Source: a virus (Duplodnaviria; Heunggongvirae; Uroviricota; Caudoviricetes). Taken from it: a DNA stretch of 32,620 bases. Under the pieces are notes generated by a model, which did not search any database, was not told the origin of the DNA, and worked only from the letters and a program-made list of their open reading frames with translations. The position numbers and the translations under genes are program-made. This document shows positions 5,930 to 32,570 of the stretch, piece after piece; position 1 is the first letter of the stretch; each line of letters starts with the position of its first letter. The stretch lies in IMG/VR virus record IMGVR_UViG_2861048470_000001. The stretch is one strand, 5' to 3'.

Positions 5930-6059
5930 CCGCGCGCAATGTTGAGTATGCTTAAGATATAGCGTTTACAATTCCAGGCTTGAAGGCTCGGGTATAGGTA
6001 AAAATTGAGTGTTCTCGGTTGCTTTTCGTGACATAAGAGGACAGCAAAGGAGGTTGAGT

Positions 6060-6530
6060 ATGTACAGCCCATTGAACATCGCGAATAAGTTTATAGAACT
6101 TGCTTGCGCGGCTGGTATGCCAATCACCCAGATGCAGGCACAAAAGCTGACCTATATAGCACATGGTATAAATCTGGGTTACAAAGGGACGCCTTTGTTA
6201 ACGACACCAGTTTGTGCATGGCGTTATGGTCCAGTGGTTCCAGTTCTGTATAACTATCTTAAAGTTTATGGCCGTAGTCCCATAACACAACCAATACAAG
6301 TTCCATCGGCAATTTCTCAGGAGTTTGACCCTATGACTGAGCAGTTGCTGCAGAACGTTTATAACGTTTACGGTAAATATACCGCTGAGGATTTATCTGC
6401 TTTCACACATCGTGAAGGTACTCCTTGGAAGCAAGCAATGGATAGTCGTATGGATATCATTCCTGATTCCGTTATTCAGGATTACTATCAAAAGCTGCTA
6501 CACGGCGATAGCAATTGCATCGGACTATGA
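6060..6530 (+). CDS. Panacea-domain (DUF4065, SocA/GepA-like) protein; candidate antitoxin
   Basis: About 156 aa from the ATG at 6060, preceded by AAGGAGG. Sequence KLTYIAHGINLGYKGTPLLTTPVCAWRYGPVVPVLYNYL fits the Panacea pattern as I recall it (K.L.Y.A....G.PL....AW..GPV...Y). AT-rich. Confidence 0.65.
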   Translation: MYSPLNIANKFIELACAAGMPITQMQAQKLTYIAHGINLGYKGTPLLTTPVCAWRYGPVVPVLYNYLKVYGRSPITQPIQVPSAISQEFDPMTEQLLQNVYNVYGKYTAEDLSAFTHREGTPWKQAMDSRMDIIPDSVIQDYYQKLLHGDSNCIGL

Positions 6531-6570: not shown

Positions 6571-7143
6571 ATGCCTGACGATAATAAGAAAGTGACAGCT
6601 GAATTTGATAAAGACCTTCTCAGACGATTGCAGCAAGCTGAGCAGAATCTGATAACTGCCTCTGCGGCTTTGGGAGATGAGGGCTGTTGGGATGAAGAAT
6701 CTCATGAGCCTGAGTCTGTTGAGGACGCTGTTGATGAAATGCAAAAGGAAGAAGAGGATGCTGCGACCATGCAGCGTTTGGATTTATCCAGTCTTAATTT
6801 TCAAATTGCTGAATTGAGTCGCTGTGTTGAAACTATAAGCACTAACCTTGAAAGCGTACAGGCAGAAACCAAAAGAAAAAATGCGGAAACCGACGGCCTG
6901 CTTACGGACAATGAGCTCCGTAGAACTATGGCTGATAAAACATATCAATTCATGATTGTTTGGTGTTGTTTTGTCGGCTGGGTCATATTTATGTATGTAT
7001 TGAAAAAAGATTTTGATCCACCAGAAACAATTATCATTGCGCTTATGGGAACCACAACTGTGAGTATTGTGGGATTGGTTGGGTTTGTTGTTAGTGGTTT
7101 GTTCAAAAGCAACAATAAACCTTCTGGCGACAATAAAAATTAA
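6571..7143 (+). CDS. Acidic coiled-coil protein with two C-terminal transmembrane helices; candidate membrane toxin/effector partner of the Panacea protein
   Basis: 190-aa ORF; N-terminal half charged and helical (LLRRLQQAEQNL..., EEDAATMQRL...); C-terminal hydrophobic stretches YQFMIVWCCFVGWVIFMYVL and IIIALMGTTTVSIVGLVGFVVSGLF. Start uncertain: an internal in-frame ATG (MQRLDL...) has a GAGGA upstream. Confidence 0.6.
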   Translation: MPDDNKKVTAEFDKDLLRRLQQAEQNLITASAALGDEGCWDEESHEPESVEDAVDEMQKEEEDAATMQRLDLSSLNFQIAELSRCVETISTNLESVQAETKRKNAETDGLLTDNELRRTMADKTYQFMIVWCCFVGWVIFMYVLKKDFDPPETIIIALMGTTTVSIVGLVGFVVSGLFKSNNKPSGDNKN

Positions 7144-19532: not shown

Positions 19533-20055
19533 TTCGCGCCTGCTGCCGACCGGCTCATCACCGCTTGAAGTCGCTGCCGCGAAAGCCTGTGCGGAAATTG
19601 AAAAAACGCCGGTCAGTATTCGTGAGCTGTGGAACCCGGACACCTGCCCGCCAAATCTGCTGCCGTGGCTGGCGTGGGCGTTTTCGGTCGACAGGTGGGA
19701 TGAAAAGTGGCCGGAAGCGACAAAACGCGCCGTTATCCGCGATGCCTATTTCATCCACTGTCATAAGGGCACGATAGGTGCAATCCGACGTGTGGTGGAG
19801 CCGCTCGGCTATCTCATCAACGTGACGGAGTGGTGGGAAAACAGTGACCCGCCCGGCACCTTCCGGCTCGATATTGGTGTACTGGAAAGCGGTATCACAG
19901 AGGCAATGTATCAGGAAATGGAACGGCTGATTGCTGATGCCAAACCTGCAAGCCGTCACCTTATTGGTCTGAACATTACCCGGGACATTCCCGGCTATCT
20001 GTTCGCCGGTGGTGTGGCTTACGACGGCGATGTAATTACGGTTTACCCCGGATAA
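19525..20055 (+). CDS. I: Tail/baseplate protein I
   Basis: 176 aa; P2 gpI position. Confidence 0.85.
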   Translation: MSDSRLLPTGSSPLEVAAAKACAEIEKTPVSIRELWNPDTCPPNLLPWLAWAFSVDRWDEKWPEATKRAVIRDAYFIHCHKGTIGAIRRVVEPLGYLINVTEWWENSDPPGTFRLDIGVLESGITEAMYQEMERLIADAKPASRHLIGLNITRDIPGYLFAGGVAYDGDVITVYPG

Positions 20056-20065
20056 GTGAGGAATA

Positions 20066-22315
20066 ATGAGCACAAAATTCAAAACCGTTATCACTACTGC
20101 CGGTGCAGCAAAGCTGGCAGCGGCAACCGCGCCGGGAGGGCGGAAGGTCAACATTACCACGATGGCCGTCGGGGATGGCGGTGGTAAATTGCCTGTCCCG
20201 GATGCCGGACAGACCGGGCTTATCCACGAAGTCTGGCGACATGCGCTGAACAAAATCAGTCAGGACAAACGAAACAGTAATTATATTATCGCAGAGCTGG
20301 TTATTCCGCCGGAGGTGGGCGGTTTCTGGATGCGTGAGCTTGGCCTGTACGATGATGCTGGAACGTTAATTGCCGTGGCGAACATGGCCGAAAGTTATAA
20401 GCCAGCCCTTGCCGAAGGCTCAGGGCGTTCGCAGACCTGCCGCATGGTCATCATCGTCAGCAGTGTGGCCTCAGTGGAGCTGACCATTGACACCACAACG
20501 GTGATGGCAACGCAGGATTACGTTGATGACAAAATTGCAGAACATGAACAGTCACGACGTCACCCTGACGCCTCGCTGACCGCAAAAGGTTTTACTCAGT
20601 TAAGCAGTGCGACCAACAGCACGTCTGAAACACTGGCTGCAACGCCAAAGGCGGTTAAGGCCGCATATGACCTTGCTAACGGGAAATATACCGCACAGGA
20701 CGCTACCACCGCGCGAAAAGGCCTTGTTCAGCTCAGTAGTGCGACTAACAGCACGTCTGAAACGCTCGCCGCAACGCCGAAAGCGGTAAAGGCAGCATAT
20801 GACCTTGCTAACGGGAAATACACTGCACAGGATGCCACAACAGCGCGAAAAGGCCTTGTTCAGCTCAGTAGCGCCACCAACAGCGATTCTGAAACGCTTG
20901 CGGCAACGCCAAAGGCGGTTAAGACAGCATATGACCTTGCTAACGGGAAATACACTGCACAGGATGCCACCACGGCGCGAAAAGGTCTTGTCCAGCTCAG
21001 TAGCGCCACCAACAGTGATTCTGAAACGCAGGCTGCAACGCCAAAGGCGGTGAAGTCTGCCTATGACAATGCTGAAAAACGTCTTCAGAAAGATCAGAAC
21101 GGTGCGGATATCCCTGATAAAGAACGCTTCCTGAGTAACATTAATGTTTACAGCAAAGGTGAAGTGGATAAGAAAAAGGGAATGCGAAAGTATTCGTTTG
21201 CAGCCCCTGCAAATGTCGTTGCCGGGAAGTGGTACCCCGTTATCTTTCGCCGTGCTGCCAGCCTTTCAGGAGAAATGGCATCCCGCGTTGTTATTTCCAC
21301 TGGTTGTTATAACGGCGATTATGTAATGAATAACTGCGAGTTTAATGGCATGGTTATGCCCGGAGGCTGGACTGATCGTGGTTCATATGCGGCAGGTTAT
21401 TTCTGGACGTATCAGACTAATGAGCGTTCAATCCATTCCATTGTTACAAGCCTGAAAGATGATGATGTATGTAGTGTTTTTTATGTTGAAGCCAGAGCTT
21501 TCCCTGTACAAATTCTTGCAGAGGAAGGGCTAACGGTTATTGTTCCGACAGAGGATTATGTCGTCGGTCAAACGACATATAAGTGGGGGGCAACTAATCC
21601 CGCTACAGAAAGCACGAACGCACAGGCTATTCTGGATTTTAAAAATGGACGTGGTTATTACTGTTCACATCCATTTATTTCCAGCCTTTCAGGAAATGCT
21701 GCAACAGCAACGAAGTTAGCGAACGCAAGAAATATTAATGGTGTCAGATTTGATGGCTCTGCCGATATAAATATTAATACACTGGTATCCAGAAACCGTG
21801 TTAATGCATTAGGTGGGAGCGTAAAGGGGACACCAGGTATTCAGATGTATGAGGCATACAACAATGGCTACCCAACAGCCTATGGTAATGTGCTTCATCT
21901 CACTGGCGTAACCGCAGTAGGAGAGGGTGAGTTACTTATTGGCTGGAGTGGAACCAGCGGTGCTCATGCTCCGGCATATATTCGTTCCCGACGAGATACC
22001 ACAGATGCTAACTGGTCTGGATGGGCGCAACTATATACAACTGCTCATAAACCCTCAGCGGGAGATGTTGGTGCATACACCAAAACTGAGTCAGATTCAC
22101 GTTATGTGAGAGACATGCGGCTGGGCGGTGCATCTACATATAAACCAGCAAATAATGGTACTACATGGACGCATCAGGCTCCGTCAGGTTGCGTATATAC
22201 CGGCATTATTGTTCAGGATACCGGCTCAAACTCTGCCGATAACATTGGTGGCGTATATTACAGACCGGTGCAGAAATACATTAACGGGACATGGTATAAC
22301 GTGGCGCAGGTATAA
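20066..22315 (+). CDS. H: Tail fibre protein H
   Basis: 749 aa; conserved N-terminus; internal tandem phage-fibre repeats; divergent, AT-richer C-terminal region. Confidence 0.9.
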   Translation: MSTKFKTVITTAGAAKLAAATAPGGRKVNITTMAVGDGGGKLPVPDAGQTGLIHEVWRHALNKISQDKRNSNYIIAELVIPPEVGGFWMRELGLYDDAGTLIAVANMAESYKPALAEGSGRSQTCRMVIIVSSVASVELTIDTTTVMATQDYVDDKIAEHEQSRRHPDASLTAKGFTQLSSATNSTSETLAATPKAVKAAYDLANGKYTAQDATTARKGLVQLSSATNSTSETLAATPKAVKAAYDLANGKYTAQDATTARKGLVQLSSATNSDSETLAATPKAVKTAYDLANGKYTAQDATTARKGLVQLSSATNSDSETQAATPKAVKSAYDNAEKRLQKDQNGADIPDKERFLSNINVYSKGEVDKKKGMRKYSFAAPANVVAGKWYPVIFRRAASLSGEMASRVVISTGCYNGDYVMNNCEFNGMVMPGGWTDRGSYAAGYFWTYQTNERSIHSIVTSLKDDDVCSVFYVEARAFPVQILAEEGLTVIVPTEDYVVGQTTYKWGATNPATESTNAQAILDFKNGRGYYCSHPFISSLSGNAATATKLANARNINGVRFDGSADININTLVSRNRVNALGGSVKGTPGIQMYEAYNNGYPTAYGNVLHLTGVTAVGEGELLIGWSGTSGAHAPAYIRSRRDTTDANWSGWAQLYTTAHKPSAGDVGAYTKTESDSRYVRDMRLGGASTYKPANNGTTWTHQAPSGCVYTGIIVQDTGSNSADNIGGVYYRPVQKYINGTWYNVAQV
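20585..21076 (+). repeat. Four tandem copies of a 132-bp (44-aa) repeat inside H
   Basis: Units start at 20585, 20717, 20849 and 20981, each encoding KG(L/F)(V/T)QLSSATNS(T/D)SETLAATPKAVKAAYDLANGKYTAQDATTAR; the fourth is truncated and divergent. Copies differ at synonymous sites. Confidence 0.85.
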
Positions 22316-22318
22316 TTT

Positions 22319-22846
22319 ATGCAGCATTTAAAAAATATTACGGCGGGTAATCCAAAAACGGTTGAACAATATCAATTGACAAAGGACTTTGATGTTGTCT
22401 GGTTTTTTTCAGAAGATGGTAAGAACTGGTACGAAGAACAAAAGTATTTTGCTGATGACACGATAAAAATAGCGTACGACAAAGATAATATCATCCACTA
22501 TGTGGAAAAGGATGTGACAGCTATCAGACCGGATGGATTAAGTGTTGTTGAAGTGGCGGATATTACTGCTAACCGACGGGCGGACATTTCAGGGAACTGG
22601 ATGTTTAAGGACGGCAAAGTGATTAAACGCATTTATACGGCAGAGGAATTACAGCAGCAGGCAGAAATTCGGAAAGCCAGACTTCTTGCAGATGCTGAAT
22701 CCGTGATTTTGCCGCTGGAGCGCGCGGTCAGACTGAACATGGCAACAGATGAGGAGCGTAGCCGACTGGAATCATGGGAACGCTACAGCGTTCTGATCAG
22801 TCGTGTGGATCCTGCAAATCCTGAATGGCCGGAAATGCCGCAATAA
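22319..22846 (+). CDS. G: Tail fibre assembly chaperone G
   Basis: 175 aa (MQHLKNI...[11 protein letters not shown]); conserved Tfa C-terminus. Confidence 0.85.
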
Positions 22847-22907
22847 GTTGTATGAACTCTTGTGTGAGCTTACATACCTATAGAACAGAGTAAAGCCTAA
22901 TCTGACA

Positions 22908-22931
22908 GTCCGCTCTGTGCCAGGAGCGGAC
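22908..22931. repeat. Hairpin at the left edge of the Z/fun-locus cargo
   Basis: GTCCGCTC (22908-22915) / GAGCGGAC (22924-22931) with an 8-nt loop and no T-run; overlaps the motifs AATCTGACAGTC and AGTCCGCTCT that recur on the far side of the cargo gene. Confidence 0.5.
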
Positions 22932-23185
22932 ATAACGACACGTTAGTTAGAAATCTCAAGACCAATTAGGTTGGATACTTACATGTATACTATTGCCTAA
23001 CGATACTACCCTATCAACCTCATGGTTTATAGGCGGGGGTGAGAGCCAATCGAACGCTATCGTACGTTTTTATGCTGTCTACCCTAGACCCCAAGTAGAC
23101 ATGAATCTTACCTGATTTCCATACGAGGGCGACGTTGATCATCCAGCTTTAGTGCGAGCACTGAACTTAACATTTACCAGCAATA

Positions 23186-24232
23186 GTGATATTTTCTACA
23201 AAGAAAAATATATGGAATAACGTCATCGCGGGTACAAAAATGACTATAAAAAAAACATATGTAACACCAACAGAAATAGTGAAATATTTTTATGACAAAC
23301 CGGAAAACGATAACGTAAAAGAGAGAAAAACAATTGAGAGCCTGACCCGTCTCAAACCTGAGTGGGAAAATACTCTCGATATGATGAAGTTAATACGCAA
23401 TTGTGAAAAGCTAGCAACTGAAGGTATTTTAATGGAATTATCTTCAGGACATACTCTTTTGGACCGTTGCTATTTCGCACCGAATTTCAATGAATCAGAT
23501 GCGAAATATGGAAAGTATGATTTTATAGCTGATGGATTTGAGTCAATCATAGACCGCCTTAGTCCTTCCGTTTTACCTGTTGTTGTTGAAAAAAGTGATG
23601 GTTCACATGATCTTGGTACTAGTTTTATTGTTGGGAATAACCACACGATATTTACAGCCAGACATGTTATTGAAGACATGAAGAGTATCAGGATACTTAG
23701 AGCTGGTGGTGAGGCTTTACCAATACATAAAATCTTTGTATCTAACGATGAACGTATTGATATCGCTTTAGTTTTCACAACCATTCCGAATGAAGATAAT
23801 ATTCAACCACTTAAGGTCTCAACCAAAGCCTCGGTACTGGATGAAATTTTATCAATAGGATTTCCACCCATTCCAGGATTTGATGCATTAAAGTTATATG
23901 ACGTTTCGCATATAAATTCGTTTGTCCGACTGTCAAAGGGGCGAATTGTTGGTTCTGGTCACTCTTACTTAGATTCACAAGACTTTTTATTATTCAATGC
24001 TAGGGTTAAGGGGGGGAATAGCGGTGGCCCTATAATTAACAAATACGGCTTTGTTGTTGGTATGCTTGTACAAATACCAATATCATCTGAGGACAGTTCA
24101 AAGATTGATAACCTTGGATATGGTATAGCTGTAACAGGAAAAAGCCTGCTGGATGCCATTACATTTACAGAAAATGGCCGCGAATTAACACTCACCGACC
24201 GAGGAAATGGAGAATATTCAACTCTAGCATAA
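23186..24232 (+). CDS. Trypsin-fold (S1-like) serine protease with an N-terminal domain of unknown function; accessory gene at the Z/fun locus
   Basis: ORF with a His-Asp-Ser triad in chymotrypsin order and spacing: TARHV (His), DIALV (Asp), GGNSGGP (Ser). AT-rich. Start is either GTG at 23186 or ATG at 23240. Confidence 0.7.
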   Translation: MIFSTKKNIWNNVIAGTKMTIKKTYVTPTEIVKYFYDKPENDNVKERKTIESLTRLKPEWENTLDMMKLIRNCEKLATEGILMELSSGHTLLDRCYFAPNFNESDAKYGKYDFIADGFESIIDRLSPSVLPVVVEKSDGSHDLGTSFIVGNNHTIFTARHVIEDMKSIRILRAGGEALPIHKIFVSNDERIDIALVFTTIPNEDNIQPLKVSTKASVLDEILSIGFPPIPGFDALKLYDVSHINSFVRLSKGRIVGSGHSYLDSQDFLLFNARVKGGNSGGPIINKYGFVVGMLVQIPISSEDSSKIDNLGYGIAVTGKSLLDAITFTENGRELTLTDRGNGEYSTLA

Positions 24233-24829
24233 ATGATATTATTAATTAAGTTGTACTAACTCAGTTTAAATGAATCAAGCATCCCCGTAACTTTGCCTGA
24301 AAAGGCTCATCGAGGGATGCACATTGTACGGATGTGTGAAAACTAAATCGGCTTTGTCACTTGGATTCGAGGGGAAAACTGAACTGAAAGCGATAAAAAC
24401 GTCTAAAAAATCGTTTCGCAGACAGATGCACCCGATTCAAGCCATTTTGAGGAAGGCTTTCTGCCTTTTATATTTATATTAATCATAAGCTTATTCCATT
24501 GGTGTACGATATCGTGCTTTGCCCCTCATCTCCCAGATAACTAATTAGCCTTAAAATTACTCATGTGTTTCTGCCGGTTAAAATTATATGGTTTTCATTT
24601 ACAATAGTCTCAAGTCCGCTCTTCGCTCAAAGCAGACTGTCAGATTTGATAGCATTTGGGCTATGTAAATTGTCAGGCGGAAAATGAGTGAGTACAAATC
24701 AGGACAGGCGGGCGAATTGCCCGCATTTTCTTTATCTGTTGTTTCATCCCCTGACCAGCCAGGTCAAATAGCGTCTCATGCACTGCCCAACAGAAAATAG
24801 TTGCACCCATTAACCACGGAGTTAAACGG

Positions 24830-31213: not shown

Positions 31214-31432
31214 ATGTTTCATTGTCCTTTATGCCAGCATGCCGCACATGCGCGTACAAGCCGCTATATCACTGACACGACAAAAGAGCGTTATCACCAG
31301 TGTCAGAACGTGAATTGCAGCGCCACGTTCATCACTTATGAGTCGGTACAGCGATACATCGTGAAGCCGGGAGAAGTCCACGCCGTAAGGCCGCACCCGT
31401 TACCATCAGGACAGCAAATTATGTGGATGTGA
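31214..31432 (+). CDS. ogr: Late-gene transcriptional activator Ogr (zinc finger)
   Basis: 72 aa from MFHCPLCQH...; CxxC...CxxxxC zinc-binding pattern; last phage gene before the chromosome. Confidence 0.9.
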   Translation: MFHCPLCQHAAHARTSRYITDTTKERYHQCQNVNCSATFITYESVQRYIVKPGEVHAVRPHPLPSGQQIMWM

Positions 31433-31442
31433 TCACAAAAAT

Positions 31443-31466
31443 AGCCCCTCAGTTGAGGGGCTTATT
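31443..31466 (+). terminator. Hairpin downstream of ogr; possible terminator within the attR region
   Basis: AGCCCCTC-agtt-GAGGGGCT stem followed by a short T-containing tract. Confidence 0.5.
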
Positions 31467-31559
31467 TATGGTCGATGTGGACGCTATGTGGACAGTGCTT
31501 GATATAAATCCATTTATATCATCAGGTTAGGTGCTTTTTTGTGACACCATCCCTGTCTT

Positions 31560-31586
31560 CCCCCACATGATGTGGGGTTTTTTTTT
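31560..31586 (+). terminator. Rho-independent terminator (likely chromosomal) upstream of fieF
   Basis: CCCCACA-tga-TGTGGGG stem followed by T9. Confidence 0.5.
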
Positions 31587-31667
31587 ATCCTCAATTTGCC
31601 TGCTGCTTAATGCATTGCAGATGATTTGCTTCCGTTATACTAGCGTCAGTTGATAGCGGGAGTATTT

Positions 31668-32570
31668 ATGAATCAATCTTATGGACGGCTGGTCAGTTGG
31701 GCGGCGATTGCTGCGACGGCGATGGCTTCGTTGCTATTGCTGATTAAAATTTTTGCATGGTGGTATACCGGGTCGGTGAGTATTCTCGCCGCGCTGGTGG
31801 ATTCGCTGGTGGATATCGGCGCGTCGTTGACGAATTTATTGGTGGTGCGATATTCCCTGCAACCTGCCGACGATAATCACTCGTTTGGTCACGGTAAAGC
31901 TGAGTCCCTCGCGGCGCTGGCGCAAAGTATGTTTATCTCCGGTTCGGCACTATTCCTGTTTTTGACGGGTATTCAACATCTGATATCTCCAACACCGATG
32001 ACAGATCCAGGCGTCGGGGTTATCGTGACAATTGTGGCGCTAATTTGTACGATTATCCTTGTCTCGTTTCAGCGTTGGGTGGTGAGGCGGACGCAAAGCC
32101 AGGCGGTGCGGGCTGATATGCTACATTACCAGTCTGATGTTATGATGAACGGCGCAATTCTGCTGGCGCTGGGGTTGTCCTGGTACGGCTGGCATCGCGC
32201 CGATGCTCTGTTTGCATTGGGAATCGGCATCTATATTTTATATAGCGCGTTACGCATGGGATATGAGGCGGTACAGTCATTACTGGATCGCGCATTGCCT
32301 GATGAGGAACGGCAAGAAATTATTGATATCGTGACTTCCTGGCCGGGTGTTAGCGGCGCTCACGATCTTCGCACGCGGCAGTCAGGGCCGACCCGCTTTA
32401 TTCAGATTCATTTGGAAATGGAAGACTCTCTGCCTTTGGTTCAGGCACATATGGTGGCGGATCAGGTAGAGCAGGCTATTTTACGGCGTTTTCCGGGATC
32501 GGATGTAATTATCCATCAGGACCCCTGTTCCGTCGTACCCAGGGAGGGTAAACGGTCTATGCTTTCATAA
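31668..32570 (+). CDS. fieF: Cation-diffusion-facilitator ferrous-iron/zinc efflux transporter FieF (YiiP)
   Basis: About 300 aa from [10 protein letters not shown]...; multiple transmembrane helices and [11 protein letters not shown] motif; matches enterobacterial FieF as I recall it. Confidence 0.9.

Follow-up and report, generated by a model that had tools for sequence, protein, structure and literature searches.

Phage tail-fibre proteins that carry the PF03406 repeat (Phage_fiber_2, phage tail fibre repeat) are already labelled "phage tail fiber repeat" in databases, and PF03406 has also been reported in collagen-like fibre proteins of prophages (PMC3368898). The described proteins closest to the one analysed here are the tail-fibre protein gpH of phage P2 (AF063097, 669 aa), the 748-aa H proteins of Peduovirus P2_2H4 (LR595869) and Escherichia phage 9W (OM475431), the tail fibre protein S of phage Mu (gp49; PDB sequences 5yvq, 9ki1 and 8ju3) and the Stf proteins encoded by lambdoid prophages of Escherichia coli. 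These proteins differ in the number of repeat units that they contain. P2 gpH has two, one full and one half, and leaves the repeats through the sequence ...AVKTVMDETNKKAPLNSPALTGT into its distal module; P2_2H4 and 9W have four; and Mu S has exactly one, followed by the exit ...DNAxxRLxKDxNGADIP. Mu fibres have been reported to be docked along the sheath (PMC11915804).

The window analysed here, a stretch of 32,620 nucleotides, is an E. coli P2-like (Peduovirus) prophage. An ORF of 2250 nt on its plus strand (20066..22315) encodes a protein of 749 aa with a PF12571 match and four PF03406 matches and is followed by a PF02413 gene, and it is therefore the tail-fibre gene H. Full-length copies of this gene with 100% identity are present on seven complete E. 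coli chromosomes, among them those of several named ETEC strains. In the RefSeq annotation of the identical prophage in NZ_CP025916, H lies in the order V-W-J-I-H-G, as in P2. That prophage also encodes an integrase, Cox, a replication endonuclease, portal, terminase, capsid and lysis proteins; 3′ of the baseplate genes V-W-J-I it carries H, the tail-fibre assembly gene, sheath, tube, tape measure, D and Ogr, and the host genes fieF and pfkA come after it. The N-terminal tail-collar (baseplate-attachment) domain of H, residues 1-151 (20066..20518, plus strand), matches PF12571 over the full profile (E 1.3e-58), and it is 99-100% identical in 80 IMG/VR contigs. Gene G (22319..22846, plus strand) encodes a 175-aa protein that matches PF02413 (Caudo_TAP, E 1.8e-33) and is annotated in RefSeq as a tail fiber assembly protein. 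The protein is thus a gpH of the P2 type by its PF12571 domain, by its position in V-W-J-I-H-G and by direct homology to P2 gpH, with 95.0% nucleotide identity over nt 1-726. Near H lies an S1 peptidase gene. In a PADLOC scan its only matches were to the protease domains of defence proteins with several domains, so that it could not be assigned to a defence system.

Tandem Repeats Finder, run over the whole window, returned a single strong array at 20612-21067 with a period of 132, 3.5 copies, 88% matches, no indels and a score of 674. Read in the frame of H, the array spans 20588-21115 and consists of three full units of 44 aa (132 nt) and a partial fourth. The boundaries of the full units, all on the plus strand, were placed from Tandem Repeats Finder, Pfam and the in-frame reading: unit 1 comprises residues 175-218 (20588..20719), unit 2 residues 219-262 (20720..20851) and unit 3 residues 263-306 (20852..20983), with the consensus GxxQLSSATNSxSETLAATPKAVKxAYDLANGKYTAQDATTARK. 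Unit 4 (20984..21115, plus strand), delimited by the in-frame reading, shares its first ~28 residues with the other units (GLVQLSSATNSDSETQAATPKAVKSAYD) and then continues with NAEKRLQKDQNGADIP; after this conserved half, which extends to ~21067, the unit runs into ...DNAEKRLQKDQNGADIP, being fused to a Mu-S-like exit, ...AVKSAYDNAEKRLQKDQNGADIP. The distal module of H, residues 351-749 (21116..22312, plus strand), has a lower GC content and is presumably receptor-binding; its C-terminal 110 aa resemble both the Mu S/S′ tip and the "short tail fiber" tip 9cuy.

A Pfam search located PF03406 in four stretches of H with a total of 266.5 bits (E 5.1e-81), far above the curated gathering cutoff of 22 bits, and the best stretch covers positions 1-41 of the 42-position profile. 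All four units match the family end to end and show no difference from it at the family level. With a score above the gathering cutoff and tandem copies of ~40 residues inside a phage tail-fibre protein, the array is very probably an ordinary array of the catalogued PF03406 repeat, which occupies a proximal stretch of gpH flanked by the anchor domain and the distal module. The repeat is already known as a catalogued family, and four units are the modal state among P2-like H genes of E. coli. What this work adds is description only, namely the 44-residue register, the positional unit types, the spectrum of unit numbers and the pattern of breakpoints. An earlier, sequence-only reading of this DNA had proposed four tandem 44-aa repeats at 20585-21076 in a P2-type tail-fibre gene H of about 749 aa. 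The interval lies within a few bases of the array, and the gene identification was correct (four PF03406 matches, PF12571, the order J-I-H-G and 95% identity to P2), as was the statement that P2 H is shorter; it has 669 aa and two units. The description of the repeats was confirmed, with one nuance: four conserved motifs are present, of which three belong to full units, and the fourth unit matches over ~28 residues. Two checks proposed with that reading, for periodicity and for a tail-fibre repeat family by HMM, returned the 132-nt period and PF03406.

P2 gpH is similar to the present H in gene position, in the N-terminal collar domain and in unit 1, and the homology ends inside unit 2, where its conserved half ends. 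It differs in having two units rather than four and in leading through its exit into an unrelated distal module, whereas the exit of the present H is Mu-S-like and its distal 500 residues are not P2-like. The 1-2-3-4 array of four units is also present in the H genes of P2_2H4 and 9W, which are 96.8% identical to the present H over nt 1-1643; their tips, encoded by the last ~600 nt, differ from that of the present H, and their receptor specificity is therefore presumably different. Mu S shares with H the one unit and its exit: in a search with the unit profile, unit 4 of H and its exit aligned to Mu S residues 118-161 (E 8e-21), and H residues 288-362 and 638-748 matched Mu S with E values of 4e-35 to 3e-25, the latter segment being related to the C-terminal tip of Mu S. 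Between these two Mu S-like segments, ~275 residues of H had no Pfam or PDB match. Mu S differs from H in its single unit, its N-terminal baseplate adaptor and its central region. Finally, lambdoid Stf genes in many complete E. coli genomes match the DNA of H units 2-4 at 80-90%; these genes, annotated as "prophage tail fiber N-terminal domain-containing protein" or stfR, encode siphovirus side fibres that differ from H in their N-terminal domains and unit numbers.

The full units of H are 83.3-89.4% identical in DNA, with 14-22 of their 132 nt differing in each comparison. Codon position 3 accounts for 43 of the 57 pairwise differences. Units 1 and 2, for example, differ synonymously in 17 codons and non-synonymously in 2. 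Pairwise comparison of units 1-3 by the Nei-Gojobori method gave dS values of 0.41-0.85 and dN values of 0.04-0.08, corresponding to a dN/dS of ~0.05-0.1, while the N-terminal domain of H has a dS of 0.11 against P2 H. Each unit most resembles the units that occupy its position in other phages. Unit 1 is 90-95% identical in nucleotides to unit 1 of other P2-like H genes and 83-84% identical to the two full units that follow it, units 2 and 3; unit 2 is 91-94% identical to unit 2 of relatives, unit 3 is 92-97% identical to their penultimate unit, and unit 4 is 92-94% identical to their unit at the same position. As units at the same position elsewhere are closer than neighbours in the same array, the duplication predates the divergence of these phages. 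These comparisons show an ancient duplication as the origin of the units, strong purifying selection that has kept their protein near-invariant, and positional types 1-2-3-4 that different phages have in common. Both the earlier statement that the copies differ mostly at synonymous positions and its conclusion that the array is old are borne out by these values. In register, the units share identical runs of 26-46 nt, roughly the shortest homology that RecA-dependent exchange requires in E. coli.

We next consider the number of units among relatives. The sample comprised 103 loci that encode the N-terminal domain; IMG/VR contributed 80 of them, and a set with one genome per species contributed 23. 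Together with three references (P2, P2_2H4 and the NZ_CP025916 prophage), these loci yielded 102 complete H ORFs. Units were counted in the DNA loci; counts from protein matches are biased because the listed matches were never longer than ~1.75 times the query. Four units were found in 44 ORFs, two in 31, one in 10, three in 9 and five in 8, and the 44-residue register was kept without exception over this range of one to five. The comparison of copy number that the earlier reading had asked for thus gives four as the commonest count (44/102), and together with the catalogued status of the repeat this removes the unusualness which that reading had implied for a four-unit H. All five numbers occur in finished genomes: one unit in PEC1020, two in P2, three in PapRG-06-3 (where the tip is that of the present H, at 99%), four in the present H and five in H15. 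In addition, a query made of the N-terminal domain and the array was colinear over at least 80% of its length, that is, at least through the third unit, in 391 of 5,426 complete E. coli genomes. Among the papers searched, none on unit number in P2-like H genes was found.

Units were typed against units 1-4 of the present H and unit 2 of P2 (P). Among 78 typed genes of the E. coli type, the architectures were 1234 (35), 1P (23), 1334 (7), 12334 (6), P (3), 12234 (2), 134 (1) and 124 (1), type 3 being the duplicated unit in 1-3-3-4 and 1-2-3-3-4. Unit number is thereby shown to change occasionally and by whole units only, and the pattern of architectures fits rare unequal homologous exchange between units. 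Variation in unit number was seen within just 3 of 33 tip clusters, indicating that the array is stable and not hypervariable. One such change is seen in the complete genome NZ_CP048604, in which the distal 400 residues of the present H are found at 99% identity behind three units, 1-3-4, in a 705-aa protein that is missing unit 2. A two-unit, 661-aa allele with the same tip as the present H is frequent in short-read assemblies and absent from all 5,426 complete genomes; as a possible assembly collapse, it was not counted.

To locate where fibre genes cease to resemble H, the colinear DNA similarity was measured from the start codon in 79 relatives. It ended at nt 594 in 3 relatives, at 726 in 23, at 854-882 in 3, at 990-1002 in 8, at 1046 in 28 and at 1643 in 5, and it reached full length in 9. 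The conserved first halves (...TPKAVK) of units 1-4 extend to nt 594, 726, 858 and 990, respectively; the end of the Mu-like exit of H is at ~nt 1050. Identical end points recurred in the phage and in the complete-genome searches. Where the array ends, the GC content falls from ~0.54 to 0.41-0.49. The sequences that follow the last half-unit are of two types: genes with one or two units have a P2-like exit (...TVMDETNKK...), and those with three to five have a Mu-S-like one (...SAYDNAEKRLQKDQNGADIP...). The alignments show the conserved unit half, GLVQLSSATNSxSETLAATPKAVK, to be the point at which similarity between different fibre genes stops. Taken together, the end points at half-units, the GC drop, the exits and the matches to Mu S and Stf indicate that the array separates the P2 backbone part of H from a distal module that appears exchangeable, with the conserved half-unit as the recurrent junction. 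We infer that this half-unit may serve as the crossover point for swaps of distal modules among P2-like, Mu-like and lambdoid fibres. The junction pattern locates the end of similarity, not recombination events as such, and it may be a side effect of conservation rather than a selected function. This interpretation of the junctions agrees with the mosaic view of tail-fibre evolution that was reportedly put forward by Haggard-Ljungquist et al. in 1992 and by Sandmeier in 1994.

In the fibre, the N-terminal domain of H anchors the protein to the baseplate, and the array sits between this anchor and the distal, presumably receptor-binding module, whose folding gpG assists. Each unit would add one fixed segment to the shaft of a trimeric fibre, and the number of units would set the distance of the tip from the baseplate. 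Proteins with more units do tend to be longer (Spearman 0.45, p 0.006), and a compensation of unit number by distal length was rejected (rho -0.13, p 0.45). That copy number tunes fibre length, as the sequence-only reading had suggested, is plausible from these comparisons, the number varying naturally from one to five and also behind the same tip. An AF2 monomer model of residues 1-420, built from a 20-sequence alignment, had pLDDT values of ~70-90 over residues 1-140 only and below 50 across the whole repeat array. A Foldseek search of this model against the PDB matched the N-terminal domain only, the hit being a Haloferax tailed virus 1 tail protein (E 1.8e-5), and returned nothing for the repeats. 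Searches of PDB sequences with the whole protein, with the array alone and with a 17-sequence unit profile gave Mu S as the only solved relative, and neither the sequence nor the fold searches found a solved structure with more than one unit. T4 gp34 contains three ~44-residue repeats of a mixed alpha-beta fibrous domain. The search with the unit profile did not retrieve gp34, and a link between its repeats and the H unit is thus unsupported.

Beyond an effect on length, three more specific roles of the units were weighed. Selection may act on the number of units as on a dial that adjusts the reach of the fibre to the depth of the host's surface layer, O-antigen or capsule, with the high synonymous divergence between units itself selected to suppress unequal recombination; if so, that divergence would keep a chosen fibre length stable. 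Three observations are compatible with such a dial, which we regard as a tentative and rather unlikely proposal: unit number varies behind the same tip, total length rises without compensation, and silent-site divergence is much higher between the paralogous units than in the orthologous N-terminal domain. Somewhat less probable is that the units are primarily binding sites, one each, for the docking of a folded-back fibre to the sheath, for an accessory protein or for weak binding of host glycans. The dN/dS of ~0.05-0.1 reflects a stronger conservation than a passive spacer might need, and the Mu fibre, which has one common unit, is the one reported to be sheath-docked (PMC11915804). A tightly packed trimeric fibrous fold, however, would make such conservation just as expected, and the existence of functional fibres with one to five units speaks against a stoichiometric partner. 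A contingency locus, in which slippage or recombination would switch unit number at high frequency and produce mixed fibre lengths in a phage population, is very unlikely. Unit number is polymorphic (one to five), even behind the same tip, and the identical in-register runs would offer sites for exchange, but frequent exchange would homogenise the units, and their synonymous divergence and positional identity across many genomes thus argue against it. Moreover, 53 complete genomes have a colinear H, the matches listed among them being of the same length and 97.3-100% identical, and the tip clusters with more than one unit number are few.

Two further explanations were considered. Sequence such as tandem 132-nt units is mishandled by short-read assemblers, many database homologues are "partial" proteins that end at contig ends, and the two-unit same-tip allele occurs in short-read assemblies and in 0 of 5,426 complete genomes; an expansion, collapse or recent duplication in this one sequence is nevertheless extremely improbable. 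The units are too different from one another (14-22 of 132 nt; dS 0.41-0.85), the identical 2250-nt gene is present in the seven complete genomes, and the 53 have colinear matches to at least 80% of H, with single 2250-nt pieces at 97.3-100% identity among the matches listed (30 of the 53). The 1-2-3-4 array also recurs in 35 independent contigs and in the cultured phages P2_2H4 and 9W. The sequence-only reading had likewise dismissed an artefact, and it had called spurious the alternative-frame ORFs at 20607-21053, on which the outcome was the same. These two ORFs, taken from the ORF list (20607-20789, 60 aa, and 20799-21053, 84 aa; plus strand), lie in the +1 frame relative to H, and their presence is what could suggest that the repeat DNA encodes extra proteins, an idea to which we give practically no credence. 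A stop separates them, and the frame has stops inside the array in 43 of 43 four-unit relatives. Comparison between units gives 58-74% identity for the peptides of these ORFs and 91-95% for the H frame, because third-position changes in H hit their second codon positions. They are by-products of the repeat, not genes.

As an ordinary PF03406 array at the boundary between backbone and distal module, the array of H is real, was correctly read and is of little importance beyond housekeeping. Annotation pipelines can take the intact mosaic H for pseudogene fragments. Short-read assemblies often break in H and may collapse the array, and unit counts from draft assemblies are therefore unreliable. 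For the engineering of P2 or pyocin fibres by exchange of distal modules, H and its relatives offer natural, repeatedly used junctions directly after each ...TPKAVK motif, and a natural range of one to five units that could be used.

The C-terminal tip of the tail-fibre protein H comprises residues 638-749, encoded at 21980-22312. It is similar to the Mu S/S' tips (8ju3, 5yvq); within it, residues 676-746 (E 7e-19) are also similar to the tip of 9cuy and 9mjn, described as a 'short tail fiber'. The ∼275 residues that precede the tip (∼363-637) gave no match in Pfam or PDB. In the identical prophage of NZ_CP025916 (locus L003), H is intact and 100% identical, but RefSeq splits it into two pseudogene fragments. 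There it is annotated at 20001-21992, the same DNA as 20066-22057 of the window, with the wording 'incomplete; partial in the middle of a contig; missing C-terminus'. In other genomes a single 'tail fiber protein' is annotated from the same H DNA. The pseudogene call looks like an annotation artefact arising from the mosaic fibre.

A 661-aa H allele with two of the 44-aa units and the window's tip at 99% identity is common among short-read assemblies (proteins P0122-P0136; loci L107-L109). None of the 5,426 complete E. coli genomes carries this two-unit allele with the window tip. Many H homologues lie at the ends of contigs and are labelled 'partial', and the unit DNA is multi-copy, occurring at a median of 2 and a maximum of 11 places per genome. 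The array itself and this multiplicity of unit DNA probably cause short-read assemblies to break or collapse.

We also observed a 621-aa E. coli protein, P0127, encoded on a 68,907-nt contig. Its N-terminus is that of the baseplate spike protein V (PF04717, PF18715), joined in frame to ...NGKYTAQDATTARK, after which come one unit and the distal module of the window's H at 99% identity. Most likely, P0127 originated by a deletion in a decaying prophage, with V joined to H at a point within the array; a functional spike–fibre chimera is less likely.

At the position of fun(Z) in P2, flanked by the tail-fibre assembly gene G and by the gene for the sheath, the window instead encodes a 348-aa S1/trypsin-like peptidase (23186-24232, + strand; PF13365, E 1.8e-17). 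GC content at this locus is 0.35-0.40, compared to ∼0.58 for the backbone, with low-GC flanks spanning ∼22900-24700. The cargo at this site differs among relatives, being a Shedu nuclease in PEC1020, a HEPN protein in H15 and unknown proteins of 447 aa and 373 aa in others. PADLOC matched the peptidase to RT-Protease_XI, LmuA and HamA in their protease domains only. The gene is probably defence or lysogenic-conversion cargo. The interval between the replication endonuclease and portal genes is another variable cargo site in P2-like phages. In the window it holds two + strand ORFs, which RefSeq annotation of the identical prophage identifies as a Panacea domain-containing protein (6009-6530) and a DUF2975 protein (6571-7143), possibly a toxin-antitoxin or defence pair.

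At its far end, as placed by offset from the NZ_CP025916 annotation, the window contains ogrK (31214-31432) followed by the host gene fieF (31668-32570). Therefore, the right prophage boundary lies at ∼31450-31650, where attR is presumably located.
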